From IMG/VR virus record IMGVR_UViG_2534682236_000019: 23,414 nucleotides of DNA; one strand, 5' to 3'. The stretch's first letter is position 1. Every line of letters starts with the position of its first letter. Origin of the DNA: a virus (Duplodnaviria > Heunggongvirae > Uroviricota > Caudoviricetes). The notes below the pieces were generated by a model, which was given only the letters and a program-made list of their open reading frames with translations, made no database searches and was not told where the DNA came from. Below are positions 3,497-20,536 of the stretch, piece by piece. A program made the position numbers and the translations under genes.

Positions 3497-3582
3497 CCCG
3501 TCACCGTCACAATCACCTTCATATCACTTCAGTTTCTCTTTCTCAGCTGTTTCTTACTTTCACATTCAGGAGGACTATTCTC

Positions 3583-7830: not shown

Positions 7831-9150
7831 TCATCTGTTCCCAAATTTTATATGAATAACATTATCCGGAGCATTCTGCTGCACAGTAATGACGTTATTC
7901 ATAATAAAATTCCCCCATTCTATAAATAATTTTTTTAATTTTTCAGCTTGTTGTCCGACTTGATATGTTCGTATTAAACGGTCTTTGGGTACATGATTTA
8001 ACAGTAACTCTATTAGGCGCTCTGGAGCATCAAGGTATTCAGCGCATCCAGTCGCAACACTTCTACGCAGATCATGAGGAGAAAATGGAGTAAGTTCGGC
8101 TAGATACTTAGAGCGAACCCTTTCTAACGCGCGAGTCAGAGCGTCATTTGTGATGGGAAAGCCAGGTTTGCTAGTAGAACCAAAAACATATGCACCTTCA
8201 GTGAATTCACGTTGTGTTTTTATTAAAGAAAGCATATACGGATGTAAAGTAACAATATGGCTTTTCCCATTTTTAGTGGCTGGTATGGTCCAACGCTCTC
8301 CATTAATTTGATCCCAGCGCATTTGTGCCGCTTCAGAGCGGCGCACTCCTGTGAAAATAATCAAACGGAGTGCATTTGCGACAGAATGAGATAATACCAC
8401 ACTAGAGGAAATTCCATAGCCACCAGATGCAATGGAGCCTCCTCCAACAGTAGCATCATCCAAAGCCTTCCATAGCATCCGGAGTTCATTCTCAGGAAGC
8501 CATCGCTCGCGAGGTTTATTCATCGATGCACCAAACATTGCTGGTTTGAGCAGTCGTGCTGGGTTATGCTCAAGCATACCCTGTAAGTTGGCATGATCAA
8601 GAGTCATATTTAGAATAATTAATCCTTTACGAACTGCTTCAGAACTGGTTTTTCTTACATTACTGAGATGTTCAAAAATAACGCTTTTGGTAAGTTCGTC
8701 AATGCAAAGGTTTCCTAATGCTTTTTCAAGGTGGCGGTGATAAGTCCCTTCATAATCTGCAAGGGTTCTGGTGCTAATTGGTTTACTTGTCTTTCTGAAT
8801 TCTATCCAATCTTTCCATAATTCAGAGTAAATAATCATTTGTTCATTTTTTTGTTTTTCATTTTTTCTAATATGACGAGGATCTATACCTTTTCTTACTA
8901 ATTCAATTGCATCCGCATGAGCTTTACGAGCTTGAGCTAATCCCATGGCAGGGTAACTACCTAGTGTTAATTTAGCTGGCTTTTGAGCTATTCGATAACG
9001 ATAAATCCAGCTTTTATTGTCGCTACCATAACGAACGCGTATAAAGAGTCCTCCCCCAGCTTTAGATTTTACAGCAAATAAGATTTCTTTTTCTTCTTTA
9101 GTAACGGTCAATGAAGCCAATTGTCTGTCTTGTGTAATAGTAAAAGTCAT
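7831..9150 (-). CDS. P4-type tyrosine integrase (IntA/IntF-like), 439 aa
   Basis: N-terminal arm-binding-like region and C-terminal catalytic region with R...HDLRRS...Y residues (FSPHDLRRSVATG, LLNHV, RTYQ). ATG at 9150 (M13 of the listed ORF) has an AAGG RBS. AT-rich relative to neighbours. Confidence 0.85.
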   Translation of the reverse strand: MTFTITQDRQLASLTVTKEEKEILFAVKSKAGGGLFIRVRYGSDNKSWIYRYRIAQKPAKLTLGSYPAMGLAQARKAHADAIELVRKGIDPRHIRKNEKQKNEQMIIYSELWKDWIEFRKTSKPISTRTLADYEGTYHRHLEKALGNLCIDELTKSVIFEHLSNVRKTSSEAVRKGLIILNMTLDHANLQGMLEHNPARLLKPAMFGASMNKPRERWLPENELRMLWKALDDATVGGGSIASGGYGISSSVVLSHSVANALRLIIFTGVRRSEAAQMRWDQINGERWTIPATKNGKSHIVTLHPYMLSLIKTQREFTEGAYVFGSTSKPGFPITNDALTRALERVRSKYLAELTPFSPHDLRRSVATGCAEYLDAPERLIELLLNHVPKDRLIRTYQVGQQAEKLKKLFIEWGNFIMNNVITVQQNAPDNVIHIKFGNR

Positions 9151-12912: not shown

Positions 12913-13119
12913 TTCATACACCTGCTTTAACATGAGTGCCTAGTGGCACAACATGACTCAACGAATCATCCTGGACTTCATATGCCCCAGGCGGCTACTT
13001 CGTGGGCGTCCTGCCTGTTCGTTTTTGACATTTACTGACTGCTTACGACACATGCACCGTGTTGCAACCAGATTTTGTTGTAATCCTGTAGTTGGTCTGG
13101 AATAAAAGATAAAATTAAA

Positions 13120-13156
13120 TTGCGAGATATGCAAGTGGTATTTGCGAGATATGCAA
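13120..13156 (-). promoter_or_regulatory. Putative OL operators / leftward early promoter: two copies of TTGCGAGATATGCAA spaced 22 bp apart
   Basis: A perfect 15-bp direct repeat with dyad half-sites TTGC/GCAA. The same motif family (TTGCGTGATAAGCAA) occurs between cI and cro. On the minus strand the repeats overlap TTGCAT -35-like hexamers. Confidence 0.55.
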
Positions 13157-13165
13157 ATTTATAGG

Positions 13166-13190
13166 TAATAAAAAGCCACCTTTCGGTGGC
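13166..13190 (-). terminator. Rho-independent terminator downstream of cI
   Basis: On the minus strand: GCCACC GAAA GGTGGC followed by TTTTTATT, immediately 3' of the repressor stop. Confidence 0.65.
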
Positions 13191-13210
13191 CGATGGATGG
13201 GATATTGAGG

Positions 13211-13903
13211 TTAATTATGTCTCTTAAGGGTTTGCGACTGACTGATTAAGACCTTTCCAAAGACCATGAATCGGTGTTCGTTTTCGCTAGTAATTCCCCA
13301 TTCACGGTAAATCTGGTTATCAGAAATCACCAGCAGTTTGTCAGGAATCATTTGAAGTCTTTTAACGTATATTTTGTCATCAAAACCAAAGACATATATA
13401 CCATCACCATCAAACTGATTGATGCTGACATCAACGAAGATGAGATCTCCTGGCTCAATGGTTGGACACATACTGTCCCCACGAACGTTGATAACTTTGA
13501 TGTGATTGGCTGGTCGTCCGCCGAACATTGATACAGCATTATCAGTTCTGTATTCGATGGCATGAATCACATCAATGACATCACCGCCCTGGATAAGGCC
13601 ATTTCCCGCACTGGCACTGATATCCAGCATTTCAATACGGAACACATCCTTCACCTGCGCAACATCCTCATTATTACTGTTTTTATATACAGTATTACTT
13701 TTGTGGGCAGAGGTAAAGAGATCAGCAATATCAACACCTAAGCTCTTGGCAATATTACTCAGTGTTTGTTCGGTAAATTGTTTTTGCTTACCCGTTTCTA
13801 AGCGCGAGATGTTCGCCGCATCTACTCCTATCGCTTCAGCGAGATCGGCGATTTTCATGTTCTTCGCTTGGCGAAGTTGTCTGACTCGGTTTCCTATGTT
13901 CAT
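13211..13903 (-). CDS. CI-type prophage repressor: N-terminal XRE-family HTH plus C-terminal S24 (LexA-like) autopeptidase domain, 230 aa
   Basis: HTH segment KIADLAEAIGVDAANISRLETGKQ. C-terminal RGDSMCPTIEPGDLIFVD...YVKRL carries the Ser-Lys dyad arrangement of S24 peptidases. Divergent from cro across an operator region. Confidence 0.9.
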   Translation of the reverse strand: MNIGNRVRQLRQAKNMKIADLAEAIGVDAANISRLETGKQKQFTEQTLSNIAKSLGVDIADLFTSAHKSNTVYKNSNNEDVAQVKDVFRIEMLDISASAGNGLIQGGDVIDVIHAIEYRTDNAVSMFGGRPANHIKVINVRGDSMCPTIEPGDLIFVDVSINQFDGDGIYVFGFDDKIYVKRLQMIPDKLLVISDNQIYREWGITSENEHRFMVFGKVLISQSQTLKRHN

Positions 13904-14000
13904 GCGTTTATTACATTTCTTTATTGCGTGATAAGCAAATCAACTTGCGCAAAATAATTGCGTGAAATAACATGCATAACGCGCAATATTTGGAGGGCGT
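13904..14000. promoter_or_regulatory. OR region: divergent pRM/pR promoters with operator TTGCGTGATAAGCAA and related TTGCG/CGCAA half-sites
   Basis: 97-bp intergenic region between divergent repressor genes. 15-bp operator at 13924-13938 matches the OL repeats at 12 of 15 positions. Further TTGCGC/GCGCAA dyads at 13945-13986. Rightward TTGCGC-N17-TAACAT promoter-like hexamers before cro. Confidence 0.6.
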
Positions 14001-14261
14001 ATGCAATCACCATTACGAAATGTGCGTAAGGCGCATGGTTTCACTTTGCAGCATGTTGCTGCGGGTGTTCAAGTCAATCCAGCGACGTTGAGTCGTATTG
14101 AGAGGCTGGAGCAGATTCCATCTATCGAGCTTGCAGAACGTTTAGCCAATTTTTTTAAGGGTGAAGTCAGCGAAATGCAGATTCTTTATCCGGCACGTTT
14201 TCAATCTAGCCAAAACCAGAATGGGTTTAAACCACAGGAACAGGAGGTGAACCGTGGGTAA
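14001..14261 (+). CDS. Cro-like HTH (XRE family) regulator, 86 aa
   Basis: RBS GGAGG. HTH LQHVAAGVQVNPATLSRIERLEQIPS. Divergent from cI. Confidence 0.8.
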   Translation: MQSPLRNVRKAHGFTLQHVAAGVQVNPATLSRIERLEQIPSIELAERLANFFKGEVSEMQILYPARFQSSQNQNGFKPQEQEVNRG

Positions 14262-14805
14262 GCATCACTGGAAAGTAGAAAAACAGCCTGAGTGGTACGT
14301 GAAAGCTGTCAGAAAAACTATCGCAGCGTTGCCGGGGGGGTACGCTGAAGCTGCTGACTGGCTGGATGTAACAGAGAACGCATTATTTAACCGCCTTCGT
14401 GCCGATGGCGATCAGATTTTCCCGCTGGGATGGGCAATGATTTTGCAACGTGCTGGTGGAACTCACTTCATTGCTGACGCTGTGGCGCAGTCTGCAAATG
14501 GCGTCTTTGTGTCTCTTCCTGATGTCGAGGATGTGGACAACGCCGATATCAACCAACGCCTGCTGGAGGTCATTGAACAGATCGGCAGTTATTCAAAACA
14601 GATTCGTTCAGCAATTGAAGACGGTGTAGTGGAACCGCATGAGAAGACAGCAATTAACGACGAGCTGTACCTCTCAATTTCGAAGCTGCAGGAGCATGCA
14701 GCACTGGTCTACAAAATTTTTTGCATTTCAGAAAGTAATGACGCCCGCGAGTGTGCAGCTCCGGGCGCCGTGGCGTGTCGTGACTGTGGAGAAACTAACG
14801 CATGA
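14254..14805 (+). CDS. CII-like regulatory protein (large CP76/186-CII-type family), 183 aa, GTG start
   Basis: GTG 14254 with AGGAGG 6 nt upstream. Position after cro. Family assignment from memory of lambdoid prophage gene order, moderate certainty. Confidence 0.6.
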
Positions 14806-15140
14806 ACAGTTTAACAACACACTACCGTCGCTCGCAACTGATTGCACTTCCTGTACCGGGTGGAAAAGCGAAGGTGGAGTATTGCTATGCAGTGAATGTA
14901 CCAGGTGACAGGGAAATTGTAACCCACAGCTTTGCAGAGTGGGCTGTGGGTGATTTCAACAGGCAAAAGGAGACAGTCCTTTGCGACAAGTTAACCGCTG
15001 GTTCAAAGATCACTACGGAGTGCCCGTCAGAGTCATTCGTTGGGAACCGGAAACACAACGGGTTATCTACCTCCGCGAAGGCTATGAGCATGAGTGCTTC
15101 AGCCCGCTCGAACAGTTTCGTCGTAAATTCAGGGAAATAG
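14802..15140 (+). CDS. Hypothetical protein (112 aa); coding status ambiguous
   Basis: ATGA-coupled to the upstream gene, but the C-terminal third is low-complexity Ser/Ala-rich. A better-looking 59-codon ORF runs in another frame at 14981-15160. Confidence 0.35.
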
Positions 15141-15149
15141 AGGTCGGTC

Positions 15150-16091
15150 ATGAGCACTAAATTAACCGGCTATGTATGGGATGGTTGCGCTGCGTCAGGC
15201 ATGAAGTTATCCAGCGTGGCAATTATGGCCCGCCTGGCTGATTTCAGTAATGACGAAGGTGTGTGCTGGCCATCAATTGAAACCATTGCCCGCCAGATTG
15301 GCGCGGGGATGAGCACCGTCAGAACGGCTATCGCACGGCTGGAAGCAGAAGGCTGGTTAACGCGTAAGGCGCGTCGCCAGGGTAACCGCAATGCGTCGAA
15401 TGTTTATCAGCTTAACGTTGCGAAGCTTCAGGCAGCGGCATTTTCTCAACTGTCAGATTCTGACCCGTCAAAATCTGACGCATCAAAATCTGACCCGTCA
15501 AAATTTGATGCGTCGAAATCTGGCAAAAAAGCGGGTTTTCACCCGTCAGAATCTGGCGGGGATCCGTCAGTAAAATCAAAACATGATCCGTCAGATAAAA
15601 AACCTTCTCGTCCGGACGCTTCGCAACCGGACACGCAGACGGATGAACAGGATTTTTTAACTCGCCATCCTGATGCGGTTGTATTCAGCCCTAAAAAGCG
15701 CCAGTGGGGGACGCAGGATGATTTGACCTGTGCACAGTGGCTCTGGAAAAAAATCATCGCCCTGTACGAGCATGCCGCCGAATGTGACGGCGAGGTGGTT
15801 CGTCCCAAAGAACCGAACTGGACAGCCTGGGCAAACGAAATTCGCCTGATGTGTGTGCAGGATGGTCGTACTCATAAACAAATCTGCGAGATGTACAGCC
15901 GCGTCAGTCGCGATCCGTTCTGGTGCCGTAACGTGCTCAGCCCGTCGAAGCTGCGGGAAAAATGGGATGAGCTTTCCCTGCGCTTATCGCCGTCCGTCAG
16001 CACGTACACCGAAAAACGCGAGGACCCGTACTTCAAAGCCAGTTACGACAACGTGGACTACAGCCAGATCCCGGCAGGATTCAGGGGGTGA
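15150..16091 (+). CDS. Replication initiator (lambda O-like role) with N-terminal HTH and internal origin iterons, 313 aa
   Basis: N-terminal segment SIETIARQIGAGMSTVRTAIARLEAEGWL is HTH-like. Central Ser/Asp/Lys repeat linker is encoded by DNA iterons. Position after cII. RBS GAGGT. Confidence 0.75.
   Translation: MSTKLTGYVWDGCAASGMKLSSVAIMARLADFSNDEGVCWPSIETIARQIGAGMSTVRTAIARLEAEGWLTRKARRQGNRNASNVYQLNVAKLQAAAFSQLSDSDPSKSDASKSDPSKFDASKSGKKAGFHPSESGGDPSVKSKHDPSDKKPSRPDASQPDTQTDEQDFLTRHPDAVVFSPKKRQWGTQDDLTCAQWLWKKIIALYEHAAECDGEVVRPKEPNWTAWANEIRLMCVQDGRTHKQICEMYSRVSRDPFWCRNVLSPSKLREKWDELSLRLSPSVSTYTEKREDPYFKASYDNVDYSQIPAGFRG
15453..15606. repeat. Origin-like iteron array inside the initiator gene: 5 tandem copies (about 15-bp period) of TCAAAATCTGAC(C/G)CG plus three degenerate CCGTCAGA copies, followed by an A-rich tract
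   Basis: Directly visible: ...tctgacccgtcaaaatctgacgcatcaaaatctgacccgtcaaaatttgatgcgtcgaaatctggc... then ccgtcagaatctgg, ccgtcagtaaaatc, ccgtcagataaaaaacc. Same arrangement as the ori inside lambda O. Confidence 0.7.
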
Positions 16092-16093
16092 GC

Positions 16094-16582
16094 ATGAGTC
16101 TTTTGAATGACGTTCAGAAATTCATTGAAGCCCATCCGGGCTGTACTTCCGGAGACATTGCGGATGCTTTTGCAGGTTACTCACGGCAGCGCGTTCTGCA
16201 GTCTGCAAGCAAGTTACGTCAGAGTGGGCGTGTGGCTCACCGTTGTGAAGGGGATACACGCAGACATTTCCCGCGCCTGACTGAGAGAGCGCAGGAGCCG
16301 GAACCACAACCAGTTCGTGAAACCAGACCTGTGCGCAATTTCTATGTCGGCACTAACGATCCCCGGGTGATTTTGTGCCTGACCCGCCAGGCTGAAGAAC
16401 TGGAGTCCAGGGGCTTATACCGTCGTGCTGCAACGGTGTGGATGGCGGCATTCCGTGAAAGCCACTCCCAGCCAGAACGAAACAATTTTCTGGCGCGTCG
16501 TGAGCGGTGCTTACGGAAAAGCAGCAAGCGCGCTGTATCGGGTGAAGAGTGGTATCTGTCAGGGAATTACGTGGGGGCTTAA
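16094..16582 (+). CDS. ANR/PerC-like transcriptional regulator-like protein, 162 aa
   Basis: C-terminal AEELESRGLYRRAATVWMAAFRESHSQPERNNFLARRERC resembles the PerC/ANR family motif. ATG 16094 with AGGGGG upstream. Stop overlaps the next start (TAATG). Confidence 0.55.
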   Translation: MSLLNDVQKFIEAHPGCTSGDIADAFAGYSRQRVLQSASKLRQSGRVAHRCEGDTRRHFPRLTERAQEPEPQPVRETRPVRNFYVGTNDPRVILCLTRQAEELESRGLYRRAATVWMAAFRESHSQPERNNFLARRERCLRKSSKRAVSGEEWYLSGNYVGA

Positions 16583-17235
16583 TGAGTAATAAATATTGCC
16601 AGGCGCTGGTGGAGCTGCGGAACAAACCAGCCCATGAACTGAAGGAAGTGGGCGATCAGTGGCGCACGCCGGACAACATTTTCTGGGGAATTAACACCCT
16701 GTTTGGCCCGTTTGTTCTGGATCTGTTCACTGACGGTGATAACGCCAAATGTGCCGCTTATTACACTGCGGAAGACAACGCGCTGGCGCATGACTGGTCA
16801 GAACGTCTTGCGGAGCTTAAAGGTGCTGCCTTTGGTAATCCCCCATACAGCCGCGCCAGTCAGCATGAGGGGCAATACATCACCGGCATGCGTTACATCA
16901 TGAAGCATGCCAGTGCCATGCGTGATAAAGGCGGGCGCTATGTTTTCCTGATCAAAGCTGCCACCAGCGAAGTGTGGTGGCCGGAAGATGCAGATCATAT
17001 TGCTTTTATTCGCGGGCGTATTGGTTTTGAACTGCCTGCCTGGTTTATCCCGAAGGATGAGAAGCAGGTGCCGACAGGCGCTTTCTTCGCTGGTGCTATT
17101 GCTGTTTTCGACAAGACCTGGAAGGGACCGGCAATCAGCTACATCGGGCGCTATGAACTTGAGGCATGTGGTGAGGCCTTTCTGGCGCAGGTTCGCCAGC
17201 AGGCAGAAAAACTGGTCAGGGAGATGGCGGCATGA
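16582..17235 (+). CDS. Phage-type DNA N6-adenine methyltransferase (Dam-like), 217 aa
   Basis: Catalytic motif IV GNPPYS, and overall similarity to the phage Dam family. Translationally coupled on both sides. Confidence 0.8.
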   Translation: MSNKYCQALVELRNKPAHELKEVGDQWRTPDNIFWGINTLFGPFVLDLFTDGDNAKCAAYYTAEDNALAHDWSERLAELKGAAFGNPPYSRASQHEGQYITGMRYIMKHASAMRDKGGRYVFLIKAATSEVWWPEDADHIAFIRGRIGFELPAWFIPKDEKQVPTGAFFAGAIAVFDKTWKGPAISYIGRYELEACGEAFLAQVRQQAEKLVREMAA

Positions 17236-17558
17236 CGACGTTAACTCAATGCCAGCAGCAGGTGCTGGATATGCTGATTTCTTATCAGAAAGAACGTGGC
17301 TTCCCGCCAACCAATCAGGAGGTGGCAACCATGCTGGGATACCGTTCAGTGAATGCAGCGGTGGAGCATCTTCGCGCACTGGAGAAAAAAGGCGTCATCA
17401 CGATAAAGCGTGGCGTGGCCCGGGGGATAACGCTTCATACCGCGGTGAAGGACGACGACAGCGAGGCGGTCGGGATTATCCGCGCACTGCTTGCCGGTGA
17501 GGAAAACGCAAGGCTGCGTGCAACCCACTGGTTACATGAGAGGGACCTGAAAGTATGA
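17232..17558 (+). CDS. LexA N-terminal DNA-binding-domain homologue without peptidase domain, 108 aa
   Basis: LTQCQQQVLDMLISYQKERGFPPTNQEVATMLGYRSVNAAVEHLRALEKKGVITIKRGVARGI parallels the LexA winged-HTH domain (LexA: [55 protein letters not shown]). No S24 domain follows. Confidence 0.8.
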   Translation: MTTLTQCQQQVLDMLISYQKERGFPPTNQEVATMLGYRSVNAAVEHLRALEKKGVITIKRGVARGITLHTAVKDDDSEAVGIIRALLAGEENARLRATHWLHERDLKV

Positions 17559-17944
17559 AGCTGATCCTGCCTTTTCCGCCCAGCGTGAACACGTACTGGC
17601 GACACCCCAACAAAGGGGCGTTTGCTGGTAAGAGCCTGATAAGCGCGGCGGGGCGAAAATTCCAGAGCGCGGCGTGCGCAGCAATAGTTGAGCAGTTACG
17701 TCGTCTGCCGAAACCAACGTCGGCACCTGCTTCAGTGGAGATCGTGTTGTTTCCTCCGGATAACCGGATCCGCGATCTGGACAACTATAACAAGGCGCTG
17801 TTTGACGCCCTGACCCACGCGGGTGTGTGGGAAGACGACAGTCAGGTGAAAAGAATGCTGGTGGAGTGGGGACCGGTTATCCCGGAAGGGAAGGTCGAGA
17901 TCACTATCAGTAAGTACGAGAAAACGGCGGGTGCAGCCGCCTGA
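17555..17944 (+). CDS. rusA: RusA-family Holliday junction resolvase, 129 aa
   Basis: LPFPPSVNTYWRH and DLDNYNKALFDALTHAGVWEDDSQV match the RusA catalytic Asp region. ATGA-coupled. Confidence 0.85.
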   Translation: MKLILPFPPSVNTYWRHPNKGAFAGKSLISAAGRKFQSAACAAIVEQLRRLPKPTSAPASVEIVLFPPDNRIRDLDNYNKALFDALTHAGVWEDDSQVKRMLVEWGPVIPEGKVEITISKYEKTAGAAA

Positions 17945-17963
17945 TTAAGAGGAGAAACGAAGT

Positions 17964-18773
17964 ATGAATAATCTGATGGTCATTGATGGTATTGAAGTTC
18001 GTCGTGATGCTTATGGGCGTTACAGCCTGAACGATCTGCATCGCGCAGCAGTAGCATCTGGTGCAAATGCCAGAACCAAGGAGCCGGGAAAGTTTCTTTC
18101 CAGCCAACAAACTGTTGAGCTTGTTCATGAATTGACCAACACCCAGAATTTGGGTGTTGACCCGGTGAGTGTGATTCATGGGGGAAATGAACGGGGAACG
18201 TATGTCTGCAAGGAACTGGTGTATGCCTATGCAATGTGGATCAGCCCGTCATTCCATCTGAAGGTGATCCGTACTTTCGATATGGTAACCAGCGCACCGG
18301 AAAAATTATCCGGACAGGCTGCTGACAAGATGCAGGCTGGCGTGATCCTGCTGGACTTTATGCGCCGGGAGTTAAACCTGTCTAACTCTTCAGTGCTTGG
18401 TGCCTGTCAGAAACTCCAGGAGGCTGTTGGCTTACCGAATCTGGCACCGCGCTATGCCATTGATGCTCCTGCTGACGCGCCTGATGGCTCAAGCCGCCCC
18501 ACGCTATCATTGAGTGCACTGCTGAAGCAGTATGGTATCCGCCTGACAGCTAATCAGGCATATCACCAGATGGCGAAGCTGGGGATCGTTGAACAACGTG
18601 AACGATACAGCCGCACTGCGATTAACAACATCAAAAAATTCTGGTCGCTGACAGCGAAAGGCTGCATGTTCGGCAAGAACATCACCAGTCCCGCAAATCC
18701 GCGCGAGACGCAGCCGCATTTCTTCGAATCCCGATTCCCTGAGCTGTTAAAGCTGCTCGATACCGTTCATTGA
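17964..18773 (+). CDS. KilA-N domain protein (antirepressor-like), 269 aa
   Basis: N-terminal MNNLMVIDGIEVRRDAYGRYSLNDLHRAA... is a typical KilA-N DNA-binding domain. RBS AGAGGAG. Confidence 0.7.
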   Translation: MNNLMVIDGIEVRRDAYGRYSLNDLHRAAVASGANARTKEPGKFLSSQQTVELVHELTNTQNLGVDPVSVIHGGNERGTYVCKELVYAYAMWISPSFHLKVIRTFDMVTSAPEKLSGQAADKMQAGVILLDFMRRELNLSNSSVLGACQKLQEAVGLPNLAPRYAIDAPADAPDGSSRPTLSLSALLKQYGIRLTANQAYHQMAKLGIVEQRERYSRTAINNIKKFWSLTAKGCMFGKNITSPANPRETQPHFFESRFPELLKLLDTVH

Positions 18774-18774
18774 G

Positions 18775-19770
18775 GTGACCGTGAGAGCACTACTGACTCC
18801 TGAAATTGCCCCGCGTATGGGGATCGTATTGTTCAGGCCAGGTTCAGAGCTGATGCCCCTGTTTATGCAGGGGCGTGTCCTGCTGGAGCCTGAGCCGGAA
18901 CGTTATTCATCTTTCGCCAGTGGTGCCGTTCCGGCGGCATCACAACCGCTGGCGGATGATCCTGCCGTTCGGGCCGTGTTCCGCAATGAGGCAGTGATCC
19001 GTCGTGCTGGTGGCGTGGAATGTCTTGAAAGCTGGTTACTTCGTGAAAAAGGCTGCCAGTGGCCTCATTCCGACTGGCACAGCGAGAACATGACCACAAT
19101 GCGACACGCTCCGGGCGCAATCCGTCTGTGCTGGCACTGCGATAACCAGCTGCGCGATCAGTTCACGGAACGGCTGGAATCAATGGCAACGGATAACTGT
19201 GCCCGCTGGGTGTTGTCTGTTGTGCGTCGGGATCTCGGTTTTGATGACAGTCACGTTGTGACAATGCCGGAACTGTGCTGGTGGCTGATTCGTAATGACC
19301 TGGCGGATGCCTTACCGGAAAGTGCAGCCCGTAAGGCACTTAGATTACCGAAGCCTGTTGTGCCGTCTGTTACCCGGGAAAGTGACCTTGTGCCTTCGGT
19401 TCCTGCCACCAGCATCATCCAGGATAAAGCGAAAAAGGTGCTGGCGCTGAAAGTGGATCCTGAGTCGCCGGAGTCTTTTATGTTACGCCCAAAACGTCGC
19501 CGCTGGGTTAATGAAAAGTACACGCGCTGGGTTAAGACACAGCCGTGTGCATGTTGTGGAAAGCCTGCTGATGATCCCCACCACCTGATAGGTCACGGTC
19601 AGGGAGGAATGGGTACAAAAGCGCATGACCTCTTTGTGTTGCCTTTGTGCAGAAAGCATCACGACGAGCTGCATGCGGATACCGTGGCATTTGAAGAGAA
19701 GTATGGCTCCCAGCTGGAGCTGATATTTCGTTTTATCGATCGTGCGCTGGCAATAGGCGTACTGGCGTAA
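18775..19770 (+). CDS. DUF968-family phage protein with C-terminal HNH-like Cys/His motif (YdfU-like), about 330 aa
   Basis: C-terminal CACCGKPADDPHHLIGHGQGGMGTKAHDLFVLPLCRKHHDELH. Sits directly upstream of the Q-like gene, as ydfU does in the E. coli Qin prophage. GTG start; GTG 18781 is an alternative. Confidence 0.65.
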   Translation: MTVRALLTPEIAPRMGIVLFRPGSELMPLFMQGRVLLEPEPERYSSFASGAVPAASQPLADDPAVRAVFRNEAVIRRAGGVECLESWLLREKGCQWPHSDWHSENMTTMRHAPGAIRLCWHCDNQLRDQFTERLESMATDNCARWVLSVVRRDLGFDDSHVVTMPELCWWLIRNDLADALPESAARKALRLPKPVVPSVTRESDLVPSVPATSIIQDKAKKVLALKVDPESPESFMLRPKRRRWVNEKYTRWVKTQPCACCGKPADDPHHLIGHGQGGMGTKAHDLFVLPLCRKHHDELHADTVAFEEKYGSQLELIFRFIDRALAIGVLA

Positions 19771-19783
19771 GTGGAGAACGAGC

Positions 19784-20536
19784 ATGAACTTTGAAGCCTT
19801 ACCGAAATATTACTCCCCAAAATCTCCAAAATTGAGCGATGACGCACCGGCGACAGGCTCTGGTGGTTTAACAATTACGGATGTAATGGCTGCGCAGGGG
19901 ATGGTGCAGTCGAAAGCACCGCTTGGGTTTGCCTTATTCCTGGCAAAAGTTGGTGTTCAGGATCCTCAGTTTGCGATTGAAGGTCTGCTCAATTACGCGA
20001 TGGCACTGGATAACCCGACATTGAACAAATTGAGTGAAGAAACCCGGCTACAGATCATTCCTTACCTTGTGAATTTTGCCTTTGCTGATTATTCCAGGTC
20101 TGCGGCAAGTAAGGCTCGCTGTGAGCATTGTGCTGGTACTGGATTTCATGATGTATTGCGCGAGGTGGTGAAACACTCCAGAAGCGGGGAATCTGTTATC
20201 AAGGAAGAGTGGGTGAAGGAACTGTGTCAGCATTGTCATGGTAAGGGAGAAGTCAGCACAGCGTGCAGAGGGTGTAAGGGTAAAGGTATTGTCCTGGATG
20301 AAAAAAGAACCAGGCTTCATGGCACGCCTGTTTATAAGGTTTGTGGGCGTTGCAATGGAAACCGGTTTAGCCGTTTACCAACCACACTGGCGCGGCTTCA
20401 TGTCCAGAAGCTGGTACCAGACCTGACGGATTATCAGTGGTACAAAGGATATGCAGATGTCATTGATAAACTGGTTACAAAGTGCTGGCAGGAAGAAGCG
20501 TATGCTGAGACACAATTGAGGAAAGTGACGAGATGA
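19784..20536 (+). CDS. Late-gene antiterminator Q-like protein (QuuQ-like size, 250 aa) with four CxxCxGxG zinc-finger repeats
   Basis: CEHCAGTG, CQHCHGKG, CRGCKGKG, CGRCNGN repeats. Located immediately upstream of a promoter and terminator and the lysis cassette. Good RBS. Confidence 0.7.
   Translation: MNFEALPKYYSPKSPKLSDDAPATGSGGLTITDVMAAQGMVQSKAPLGFALFLAKVGVQDPQFAIEGLLNYAMALDNPTLNKLSEETRLQIIPYLVNFAFADYSRSAASKARCEHCAGTGFHDVLREVVKHSRSGESVIKEEWVKELCQHCHGKGEVSTACRGCKGKGIVLDEKRTRLHGTPVYKVCGRCNGNRFSRLPTTLARLHVQKLVPDLTDYQWYKGYADVIDKLVTKCWQEEAYAETQLRKVTR

Follow-up and report, generated by a model that had tools for sequence, protein, structure and literature searches.

The yfdN-dam-lexA-like-rusA gene block

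We analyzed a 23,414-nucleotide stretch of viral DNA (Caudoviricetes; IMG/VR record IMGVR_UViG_2534682236_000019; hereafter the window) in which four co-directional genes follow one another with overlapping stop and start codons. The genes encode, in order, a YfdN-type regulator of the PerC family, an orphan phage N6-adenine DNA methyltransferase (Dam), a LexA-like protein, and a RusA Holliday junction resolvase (Table 1). The gene block is routine, very common, and already annotated, while the LexA-like protein is apparently a so far unstudied part of it. The LexA-like protein combines the DNA-binding fold of LexA with a conserved tail of its own and with family-wide replacements at two positions of the LexA domain, and these features suggested to us that it could be a phage regulator with a DNA specificity shifted from that of LexA.

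An earlier note on this DNA, made from the sequence alone, had reported overlaps of the type TAATG, ATGA, and ATGA between the four genes, and the list of open reading frames (ORFs) and the sequence confirmed all three. The TAA of yfdN at 16580-16582 shares a base with the ATG of dam at 16582, the junction of dam and the LexA-like gene is ATGA at 17232-17235, and that of the LexA-like gene and rusA is ATGA at 17555-17558. A purine-rich stretch was read from the sequence upstream of each of the four starts, and translation is probably coupled via the overlapping codons. The start of yfdN is GTG 16088 in RefSeq versus ATG 16094 in several phage annotations and in the earlier note, for a product of 164 or 162 amino acids, respectively. 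Since the GTG start would overlap the stop codon of an O-like replication gene as GTGA, the tight packing would extend upstream of the four genes. Stop/start overlaps are ordinary in phage operons, and the overlapping junctions of the four genes are no special feature.

A LexA-type winged helix with a conserved tail and no protease domain

The LexA-like protein matched PF01726 (LexA_DNA_bind) across all 65 model positions (E value, 2.9e-19) and also matched phrog_362. Its first match among solved structures was the DNA-binding domain of E. coli LexA (1lea; E value, 6e-16), with an alignment reaching to about LexA residue 86, and its identity to the N-terminal domain of E. coli LexA was 45 to 51%. 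The LexA equivalog model TIGR00498 scored 70.6 bits against a cut-off of 110.95 and was covered at positions 1 to 91 of 203. No match to Peptidase_S24 was found in the LexA-like protein, which ends at residue 108.

AlphaFold2 (AF2) modeling from a 40-sequence alignment gave a predicted local distance difference test score (pLDDT) of 83; a single-sequence model with a pLDDT of 58 was set aside. The retained model has three helices and a two-strand wing in residues 1 to 70 (helices 6-22, 28-35, and 40-52; strands 56-58 and 66-68), followed by two helices in the tail, residues 75 to 103 (helices 75-88 and 93-103). Foldseek placed the first 68 residues of the model on LexA in its DNA complex (3jso_B) with a root mean square deviation (rmsd) of 1.0 Å over 68 columns at 50% identity. 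By profile and by model, the 108-amino-acid protein is a LexA-type winged helix. The matches to PF01726, the AF2 and Foldseek results, and the coverage of TIGR00498 bore out the claim of the earlier note that the LexA winged-helix domain stops before the S24 domain; the structure prediction, which the earlier note had proposed as a check, returned the LexA fold.

The tail follows approximately the pattern E-A-x3-h-R-x-L-h-A-x4-A-R-x2-A-x2-a-L (h, hydrophobic; a, aromatic), which is kept in the enteric subgroup of the family and in relatives of 40 to 50% identity that an exhaustive profile-free search retrieved. Intact ORFs of 104 to 118 amino acids with the conserved tail occur from 97% down to about 40% identity in varied phage backgrounds, and the largest clusters of the family hold thousands of member sequences. 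This conservation indicates that a two-helix tail has replaced the protease/dimerization domain of LexA. Because the S24/dimerization domain is missing, dimerization of the LexA-like protein must come from an element other than that of LexA, and the architecture suggests that the tail is the dimerization element that replaces the C-terminal domain. A helical tail after a winged helix is a layout familiar from other winged-helix repressors.

The segment LLAGE of the window protein aligns with the LexA cleavage region VAAGE. We asked whether it is a kept site at which host LexA or cI might cleave the protein in trans, and rejected this because the Ala-Gly pair varies among relatives; with LLANE or LLVGE in its place, LLAGE does not appear to be a maintained cleavage site.

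A representative search also found LexA-type winged helices fused to nucleases or in tandem pairs. Six proteins (P0130, P0148, P0155, P0187, P0211, and P0213) contain two such winged helices per chain and, from their sequences, would be single-chain "dimers" without an S24 domain; P0155 carries a PTPS-like domain in addition to its tandem winged helices. In P0210, a LexA winged helix is joined to an HNH_3 nuclease.

Replacement of two LexA residues throughout the family

The DNA-contact residues of E. coli LexA, as cited second-hand from two papers (PMC3091678, PMC13416735), are Ser39, Asn41, Ala42, Glu44, and Glu45. The LexA-like protein of the window keeps Ser39, Asn41, Ala42, and Glu45 and the wing residues Arg64-Gly65-Ile66, while Glu44 is replaced by Val and Arg28 by Asn. 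Arg28 is found almost universally in true LexA proteins. With the sequence SVNAAVEHL, the recognition helix of the window protein belongs to the LexA type of beta- and gamma-proteobacteria.

We tallied these positions in representatives from the exhaustive search, with 100 other LexA_DNA_bind hits on one side and 9 diverged tail-bearing members of the family on the other. Arg28 was present in 77 and Glu44 in 73 of the 100 other hits, in which position 45 was freely variable (E, D, Q, T, S, and others). Neither Arg28 nor Glu44 occurred in any of the 9 diverged members (0/9 for each), position 44 being A, F, T, L, or Y. The enteric subgroup has Val at position 44 and Asn or Tyr at position 28. 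Within the recognition helix of the family, Ser39 is invariant and Asn41 near-invariant.

The family-wide loss of Arg28 and Glu44, together with the different dimer module, points to an altered operator, whether in sequence, in spacing, or in both. Canonical SOS-box binding is doubtful, since the two residues are replaced in every family member. A CTGT-like half-site could still be recognized, as the LexA-type recognition helix, four of the five contact residues, and the wing RGI are retained. Most likely, the LexA-like protein would bind a site that is related to, yet shifted from, CTGT-N8-ACAG.

Linkage of the LexA-like gene to rusA

We then analyzed the neighborhoods of five relatives of the LexA-like protein with 40 to 65% identity. 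In all five, rusA lies downstream of the LexA-like gene, with a 4-nucleotide overlap in four and one 67-amino-acid ORF between the two genes in the fifth. After rusA there is usually a KilA-N or ANT gene, then DUF968, and then Q. The upstream neighbors vary: they include a PerC-like gene (in Citrobacter), a replication gene, an 82-amino-acid ORF, a methyltransferase with PF00145 and PF02086, and a PF05869 Dam followed by a PF00145-like methyltransferase. Phage ST64B has the order yfdN-dam-rusA without a LexA-like gene. With rusA constant downstream and the upstream gene variable, the linkage of the LexA-like gene to rusA is conserved and that of Dam to the LexA-like gene is not.

A functional pairing of Dam with the LexA-like protein was rejected, because Dam is missing upstream in several relatives or swapped for unrelated methyltransferases. 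Methyltransferases of differing families nevertheless recur upstream of the LexA-like gene; methyltransferases also occur elsewhere in lambdoid "nin"-type regions. A fusion of a LexA-like protein with the C-terminal half of DUF968 (P0158) was considered as a Rosetta-stone link and given little weight, as it occurs on one contig, in a decayed prophage, and probably arose by deletion.

Products of yfdN, dam, and rusA

YfdN matched PerC (PF06069) at residues 98 to 150, in the C-terminal half of the protein, with an E value of 3e-9 and 37.3 bits against a gathering score of 22.6; profile positions 5 to 57 of 90 were covered. It also matched phrog_1324, "transcriptional activator" (E value, 2e-78). 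From its family membership, YfdN would be a PerC-type regulator; PerC and PchABC activate ler/LEE. In the literature found, a yfdN deletion in strain K-12 served as a clean background for tests of Pch (PMC5931665).

Dam matched PF05869 (E value, 4e-45) and the equivalog TIGR01712 (253 bits against a cut-off of 97). The catalytic (D/N)PPY motif is present in its translation as GNPPYSRA; thus the orphan Dam-type methylase with NPPY described in the earlier note was upheld, and the motif, whose loss on re-examination would have counted against that description, is kept. A solved structure related to the Dam of the window was not found in the comparison with the PDB. The phage Dam family is known for GATC, and Dam would be expected from its family to methylate phage and host DNA during replication.

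RusA matched PF05866 (E value, 6e-15) and E. coli RusA (1q8r; E value, 4e-18). The acidic motifs RDLDN and DD of the E. coli enzyme line up with RDLDN and EDD in RusA of the window, which by family membership would resolve recombination and replication junctions. On the best-supported reading, both Dam and RusA work for the phage, in the replication and recombination of its DNA.

The early operon and its distribution

The prophage is of the SfII/mEp460 type and lies at tRNA-Thr next to proA in an annotated E. coli O157:H7 copy. Rightward of the divergent cI gene, the order is cro-like, cII/YmfL-like, DUF4222, O-like, yfdN, dam, LexA-like, rusA, KilA-N, DUF968, and Q (Table 1); in the annotated copy, lysis genes, an HK97-type head, and a contractile tail lie beyond Q. 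For the genes at 17964..20536, the RefSeq annotation of an identical region agrees with ours. The four genes of the block are the middle of a tightly packed, co-directional early-right lytic operon of about 6.5 kb from cro to Q. The earlier note had read them as a translationally coupled operon of four; the overlaps stand, but the block is not self-contained. The operon is controlled by the immunity region at 13211..14805, which comprises the cI-like, cro-like, and cII/YmfL-like genes. The product of the cI-like gene has both an HTH_3 and a Peptidase_S24 domain, as the earlier note had noticed for the S24 domain, and the gene is 99.6% identical in DNA to cI of SfII.

Directly upstream of the four genes, a simple promoter scan of 13100-18100 found nothing promoter-like. 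As the genes also follow cro, cII, and the replication gene within the lytic operon, the natural expectation is that they would stay silent in a lysogen and be switched on by induction or infection.

Table 1. Features of the early region of the window
Feature	Position	Strand	Basis
yfdN-type PerC-family regulator gene	16088..16582	+	ORF list, Pfam, phrog, RefSeq name
Orphan phage N6-adenine DNA methyltransferase gene (dam), 217 aa	16582..17235	+	PF05869/TIGR01712 and GNPPYSRA
LexA-like gene, 108 aa, winged helix without S24 domain	17232..17558	+	PF01726, phrog_362, AF2, Foldseek
rusA Holliday junction resolvase gene, 129 aa	17555..17944	+	PF05866, 1q8r alignment
cI-like repressor gene	13211-13903	minus	HTH_3 and Peptidase_S24
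Near-consensus SOS box TACTGTTTTTATATACAGTA inside cI, in DNA coding for the linker of helix-turn-helix (HTH) and S24 domains; outside the four-gene block	13675..13694	.	
cro-like gene (immunity region)	14001-14261	+	Family matches, RefSeq
cII/YmfL-like gene (immunity region)	14254-14805	+	Family matches, RefSeq
O-like replication initiator gene	15150..16091	+	phrog_391 (E value, 4e-135), Pfam HTH_36
KilA-N gene (same operon, downstream)	17964-18773	+	Pfam KilA-N
DUF968/HNH-like gene (same operon, downstream)	18775-19770	+	Pfam DUF968
Q antiterminator gene (same operon, downstream)	19784-20536	+	Pfam Antiterm

The 1,851-base block is 100% identical in several E. coli O157:H7 chromosomes. At an identity of at least 95%, it was found in 2,697 of 5,426 complete E. 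coli genomes, or about half (1,636 of these with at least 80% of the block), and in 51 phage records, among them mEp460, phi1720a-02, and Stx2a, Stx2c, and Stx2k phages; Shigella serotype-converting phages such as SfII also have it. RefSeq names its genes "yfdN: PerC family transcriptional regulator," "phage N-6-adenine-methyltransferase," "LexA family transcriptional regulator," and "RusA family crossover junction endodeoxyribonuclease." Modules of the SfII, mEp460, and CPS-53 type are the same yfdN-dam-lexA-like-rusA arrangement at 95 to 100% DNA identity, annotated gene by gene; the window does not differ from them and is one more copy.

An SOS box inside cI and its relation to the LexA-like gene

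The sole perfect CTGT-N8-ACAG in the window lies at 13677-13692, inside cI, and the surrounding TACTGTTTTTATATACAGTA agrees with the 20-mer SOS consensus at 18 of 20 positions. A box is present at the same place in SfII, ST64B, Klebsiella phage 1 LV-2017, Flotzy, Citrobacter phiNP, and Fels-1. It is kept down to 51% cI protein identity and is absent in relatives at 43 to 49%. When viral contigs were scanned with the cI protein, and then with four aligned cI proteins, only near-identical copies came up; the diversity comes from the annotated phage collection.

The linker between the two domains is the most variable part of the cI protein alignment, and Thr71, Val72, and Ser76 are the only invariant residues in it. 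The codons of these residues (ACT GTA ... AGT) are constant across the cI genes and form the two half-sites of the SOS box. Because the only invariant residues of a variable linker are encoded by the half-sites, and always by the same codons, the comparison points to selection on the DNA itself. This suggests that host LexA would bind within the immunity gene at the predicted box. LexA bound there might block passing transcription or control an internal promoter, for example a weak TTTACC-17-TACTGT in the sense direction; the promoter scan gave no clear promoter next to the box. No mention of an SOS box inside cI was found in the literature searched. The box may be a more unusual feature than the gene block, as it suggests that host LexA feeds directly into the immunity gene, whose repressor is RecA-cleavable in any case.

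The earlier note had also proposed the LexA-like protein as a potential binder of SOS boxes. The box occurs without the LexA-like gene in ST64B, Klebsiella phage 1 LV-2017, and Flotzy, and the gene without an SOS box in Kati, PhiR29_1, L010-L016, L018-L020, and most diverged loci. We therefore rejected the idea that the gene travels with phage SOS boxes; as gene and box do not co-occur, there is no comparative support for a phage SOS box as the target of the LexA-like protein. The proposal does not fit this inconsistent occurrence of boxes in phages with the gene, nor the family-wide loss of Glu44 and Arg28. The wider suggestion of that note, a prophage with influence on the SOS response and methylation state of its host, fared no better, since the genes lie in a lytic operon, the pairing with Dam is not conserved, the residues are replaced, and the SOS boxes are inconsistent. 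A role in modulating the SOS response and methylation of the lysogen is thus weakly supported.

Some phages with a LexA-like gene have SOS boxes elsewhere. In vB_EcoS-569R4 (L006, 12739-12758) and in an Stx2c phage (L008, 14735-14754), both of which carry yfdN-dam-lexA-like-rusA, a good SOS box (TACTGTAAAAATAAACAGTG) lies right at the beginning of another, larger gene for a DNA adenine methylase, which is located downstream of Q. The locus L017 (a contig of GCA_011752865.1) encodes P0139, a diverged LexA-like relative of about 40% identity, and has SOS boxes at 3562-3581 and 8166-8185. A strong box, ACCTGTACATTCATACAGTA, lies about 150 bp upstream of a small ORF that precedes the P0139 gene, and the second, TACTGTTTTTATATACAGTG, lies further downstream. 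To judge from this placement, host LexA may directly control the lexA-like/rusA/DUF968/Q block of L017.

Comparison with known LexA-type proteins

The closest studied analogue, and the sole characterized one found, is gp6 of the Bacillus thuringiensis tectivirus GIL01. Experiments have shown that this truncated LexA homologue recognizes a distinct palindrome (GaCACAnnTGTGaC) and acts as the activator of the late promoter P3 (PMC6182141). Like the LexA-like protein of the window, gp6 is phage encoded, is essentially a LexA winged helix without a protease domain, belongs to an early lytic transcription unit, and derives from a host-type LexA with a diverged recognition helix. The two proteins differ in that gp6, from a Gram-positive tectivirus, is a winged helix only, whose 14-residue C-terminal extension forms the wing and not a helical tail, whereas the window protein has a two-helix tail of about 35 residues and is encoded beside rusA in a lambdoid operon with its own Q antiterminator.

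E. coli LexA (1lea, 1jhh, and 3jso; TIGR00498) shares the fold over its N-terminal 70 residues; in contrast to it, the window protein lacks an S24 domain, Ser119/Lys156, and a conserved Ala-Gly. Stand-alone phage LexA_DNA_bind proteins (phrog_362; in BFVD, from Mycobacterium phage Wildcat and uncultured Caudovirales) are winged helices of 65 to 150 amino acids that mostly lack the tail of the window protein, and no functional characterization of these hits was found in the databases searched. A "bully phage" study of phi1720a-02, which carries the module, ascribed the effect on a co-resident prophage to Cro and did not address the LexA-like gene.

Possible roles of the LexA-like protein

We favor, at a probability of about one half, the reading that the LexA-like protein is a RecA-insensitive, dimeric, sequence-specific DNA binder of the early lytic phase with a shifted specificity, that is, a phage regulator similar to gp6. 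Upon infection, or once the S24-type cI repressor is inactivated, the four genes would be transcribed. The LexA-like protein would then be made early in lytic growth, dimerize via its two-helix tail, and act on the phage as gp6 does in GIL01 or, less likely, stand in for host LexA. Several points weigh against this reading. Lytic-only expression is deduced from gene order and a simple promoter scan, and dimerization through the tail from architecture. Of the five published LexA contact residues, the protein keeps four, and it also keeps the wing RGI; this is compatible with binding to a CTGT-type half-site. A palindrome scan of the module for a candidate operator yielded only the iterons of the putative origin (see below) and unremarkable short repeats, and literature searches returned the work on gp6 and no experimental work on the enterobacterial family.

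Alternatively, the LexA-like protein could be a non-cleavable LexA mimic that acts on canonical SOS boxes and re-represses the SOS regulon after host LexA has been cleaved, in which case it would also re-repress LexA-controlled functions of competitors (for example, antirepressors of other prophages or colicin operons) and give the phage control of the damaged cell. The close match to the DNA-bound form of the LexA N-terminal domain, the retained Ser39, Asn41, Ala42, Glu45, and wing, the LexA-type recognition helix, and the strong SOS box in the prophage are all in line with such a mimic, and RecA-stimulated cleavage would not be expected without an S24 domain or a conserved Ala-Gly. However, Glu44 and Arg28, each found in about three-quarters of the other LexA_DNA_bind hits, are replaced in all family members, the spacing of half-sites may differ with a dimer module unlike that of LexA, and the gene often occurs without an SOS box as the cI-internal box does without the gene. 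We regard a mimic as rather unlikely. Its fuller form, in which a tail-held dimer re-occupies SOS boxes after induction as a RecA-proof LexA surrogate and silences both the SOS response and the LexA-controlled antirepressors and bacteriocins of rivals for the rest of the lytic cycle, seems to us more doubtful still.

Equally doubtful is a role not mainly as a transcription factor but as a DNA-binding accessory of RusA, and perhaps of the DUF968/HNH-like protein, that would target or load these proteins or bend DNA for them. Such an accessory would resemble NinH of lambda, a small Fis-like protein whose gene neighbors that of the Rap resolvase in the nin region. The conserved linkage to rusA, usually with a 4-nucleotide overlap and also in relatives of only about 40% identity with differing upstream genes, would fit an accessory of this kind, as would the fusions of LexA winged helices to nucleases (HNH_3 in P0210 and the C-terminal half of DUF968 in P0158). 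But the P0158 fusion comes from a single contig and looks like a deletion in a decayed prophage, mosaic phage modules can keep gene order without physical interaction, and RusA acts as a homodimer without partners; the invariant Ser39 and near-invariant Asn41 favor sequence-specific recognition. That the gene is a decaying, functionless fragment of a captured lexA is already disfavored and in our view very improbable. The alignment with LexA does reach to about residue 86-91 and includes a remnant of the cleavage region (VG...AGE), but intact ORFs with a conserved tail unrelated to LexA over so wide a range of identity, clusters of thousands of sequences, and a conserved position and overlap with rusA speak against decay.

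Regulation similar to that by gp6, interference with the SOS response, or partnership with a resolvase would each matter for prophage induction, for competition between prophages, and possibly for Shiga toxin output. If the protein were a LexA surrogate, a phage switch for ending the SOS response would be present in half of all E. coli genomes sequenced. The LexA-like protein offers three concrete handles for experiments, namely its missing Arg28 and Glu44, its tail helices, and its constant pairing with rusA.

Minor features of the operon

The O-like gene contains iteron-like inverted repeats (I1 and I2) at 15452-15514, with the sequences GTCAGATTCTGAC, GTCAAAATCTGAC, and GACGCATCAAAATCTGAC/GTCAAAATTTGATGCGTC, which coincide with a repeated peptide, DPSKSDASKS, of the O-like protein. 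The repeats are probably the phage replication origin, placed inside the initiator gene as in lambda.

Two ORFs overlap at 14802-15160: one of 112 amino acids (14802-15140), which is YmfM-like in PhiR29_1, and one of 59 amino acids (14981-15160), annotated as DUF4222 in RefSeq. It is likely that one of them only is real, or else both are used in different frames.

The single promoter-like site on the plus strand in the scanned region, TTAAGA-16-AATAAT at 17945-17972, lies in the 19-nucleotide gap between rusA and the KilA-N gene and overlaps the ribosome-binding site of the latter; it may be a chance match.

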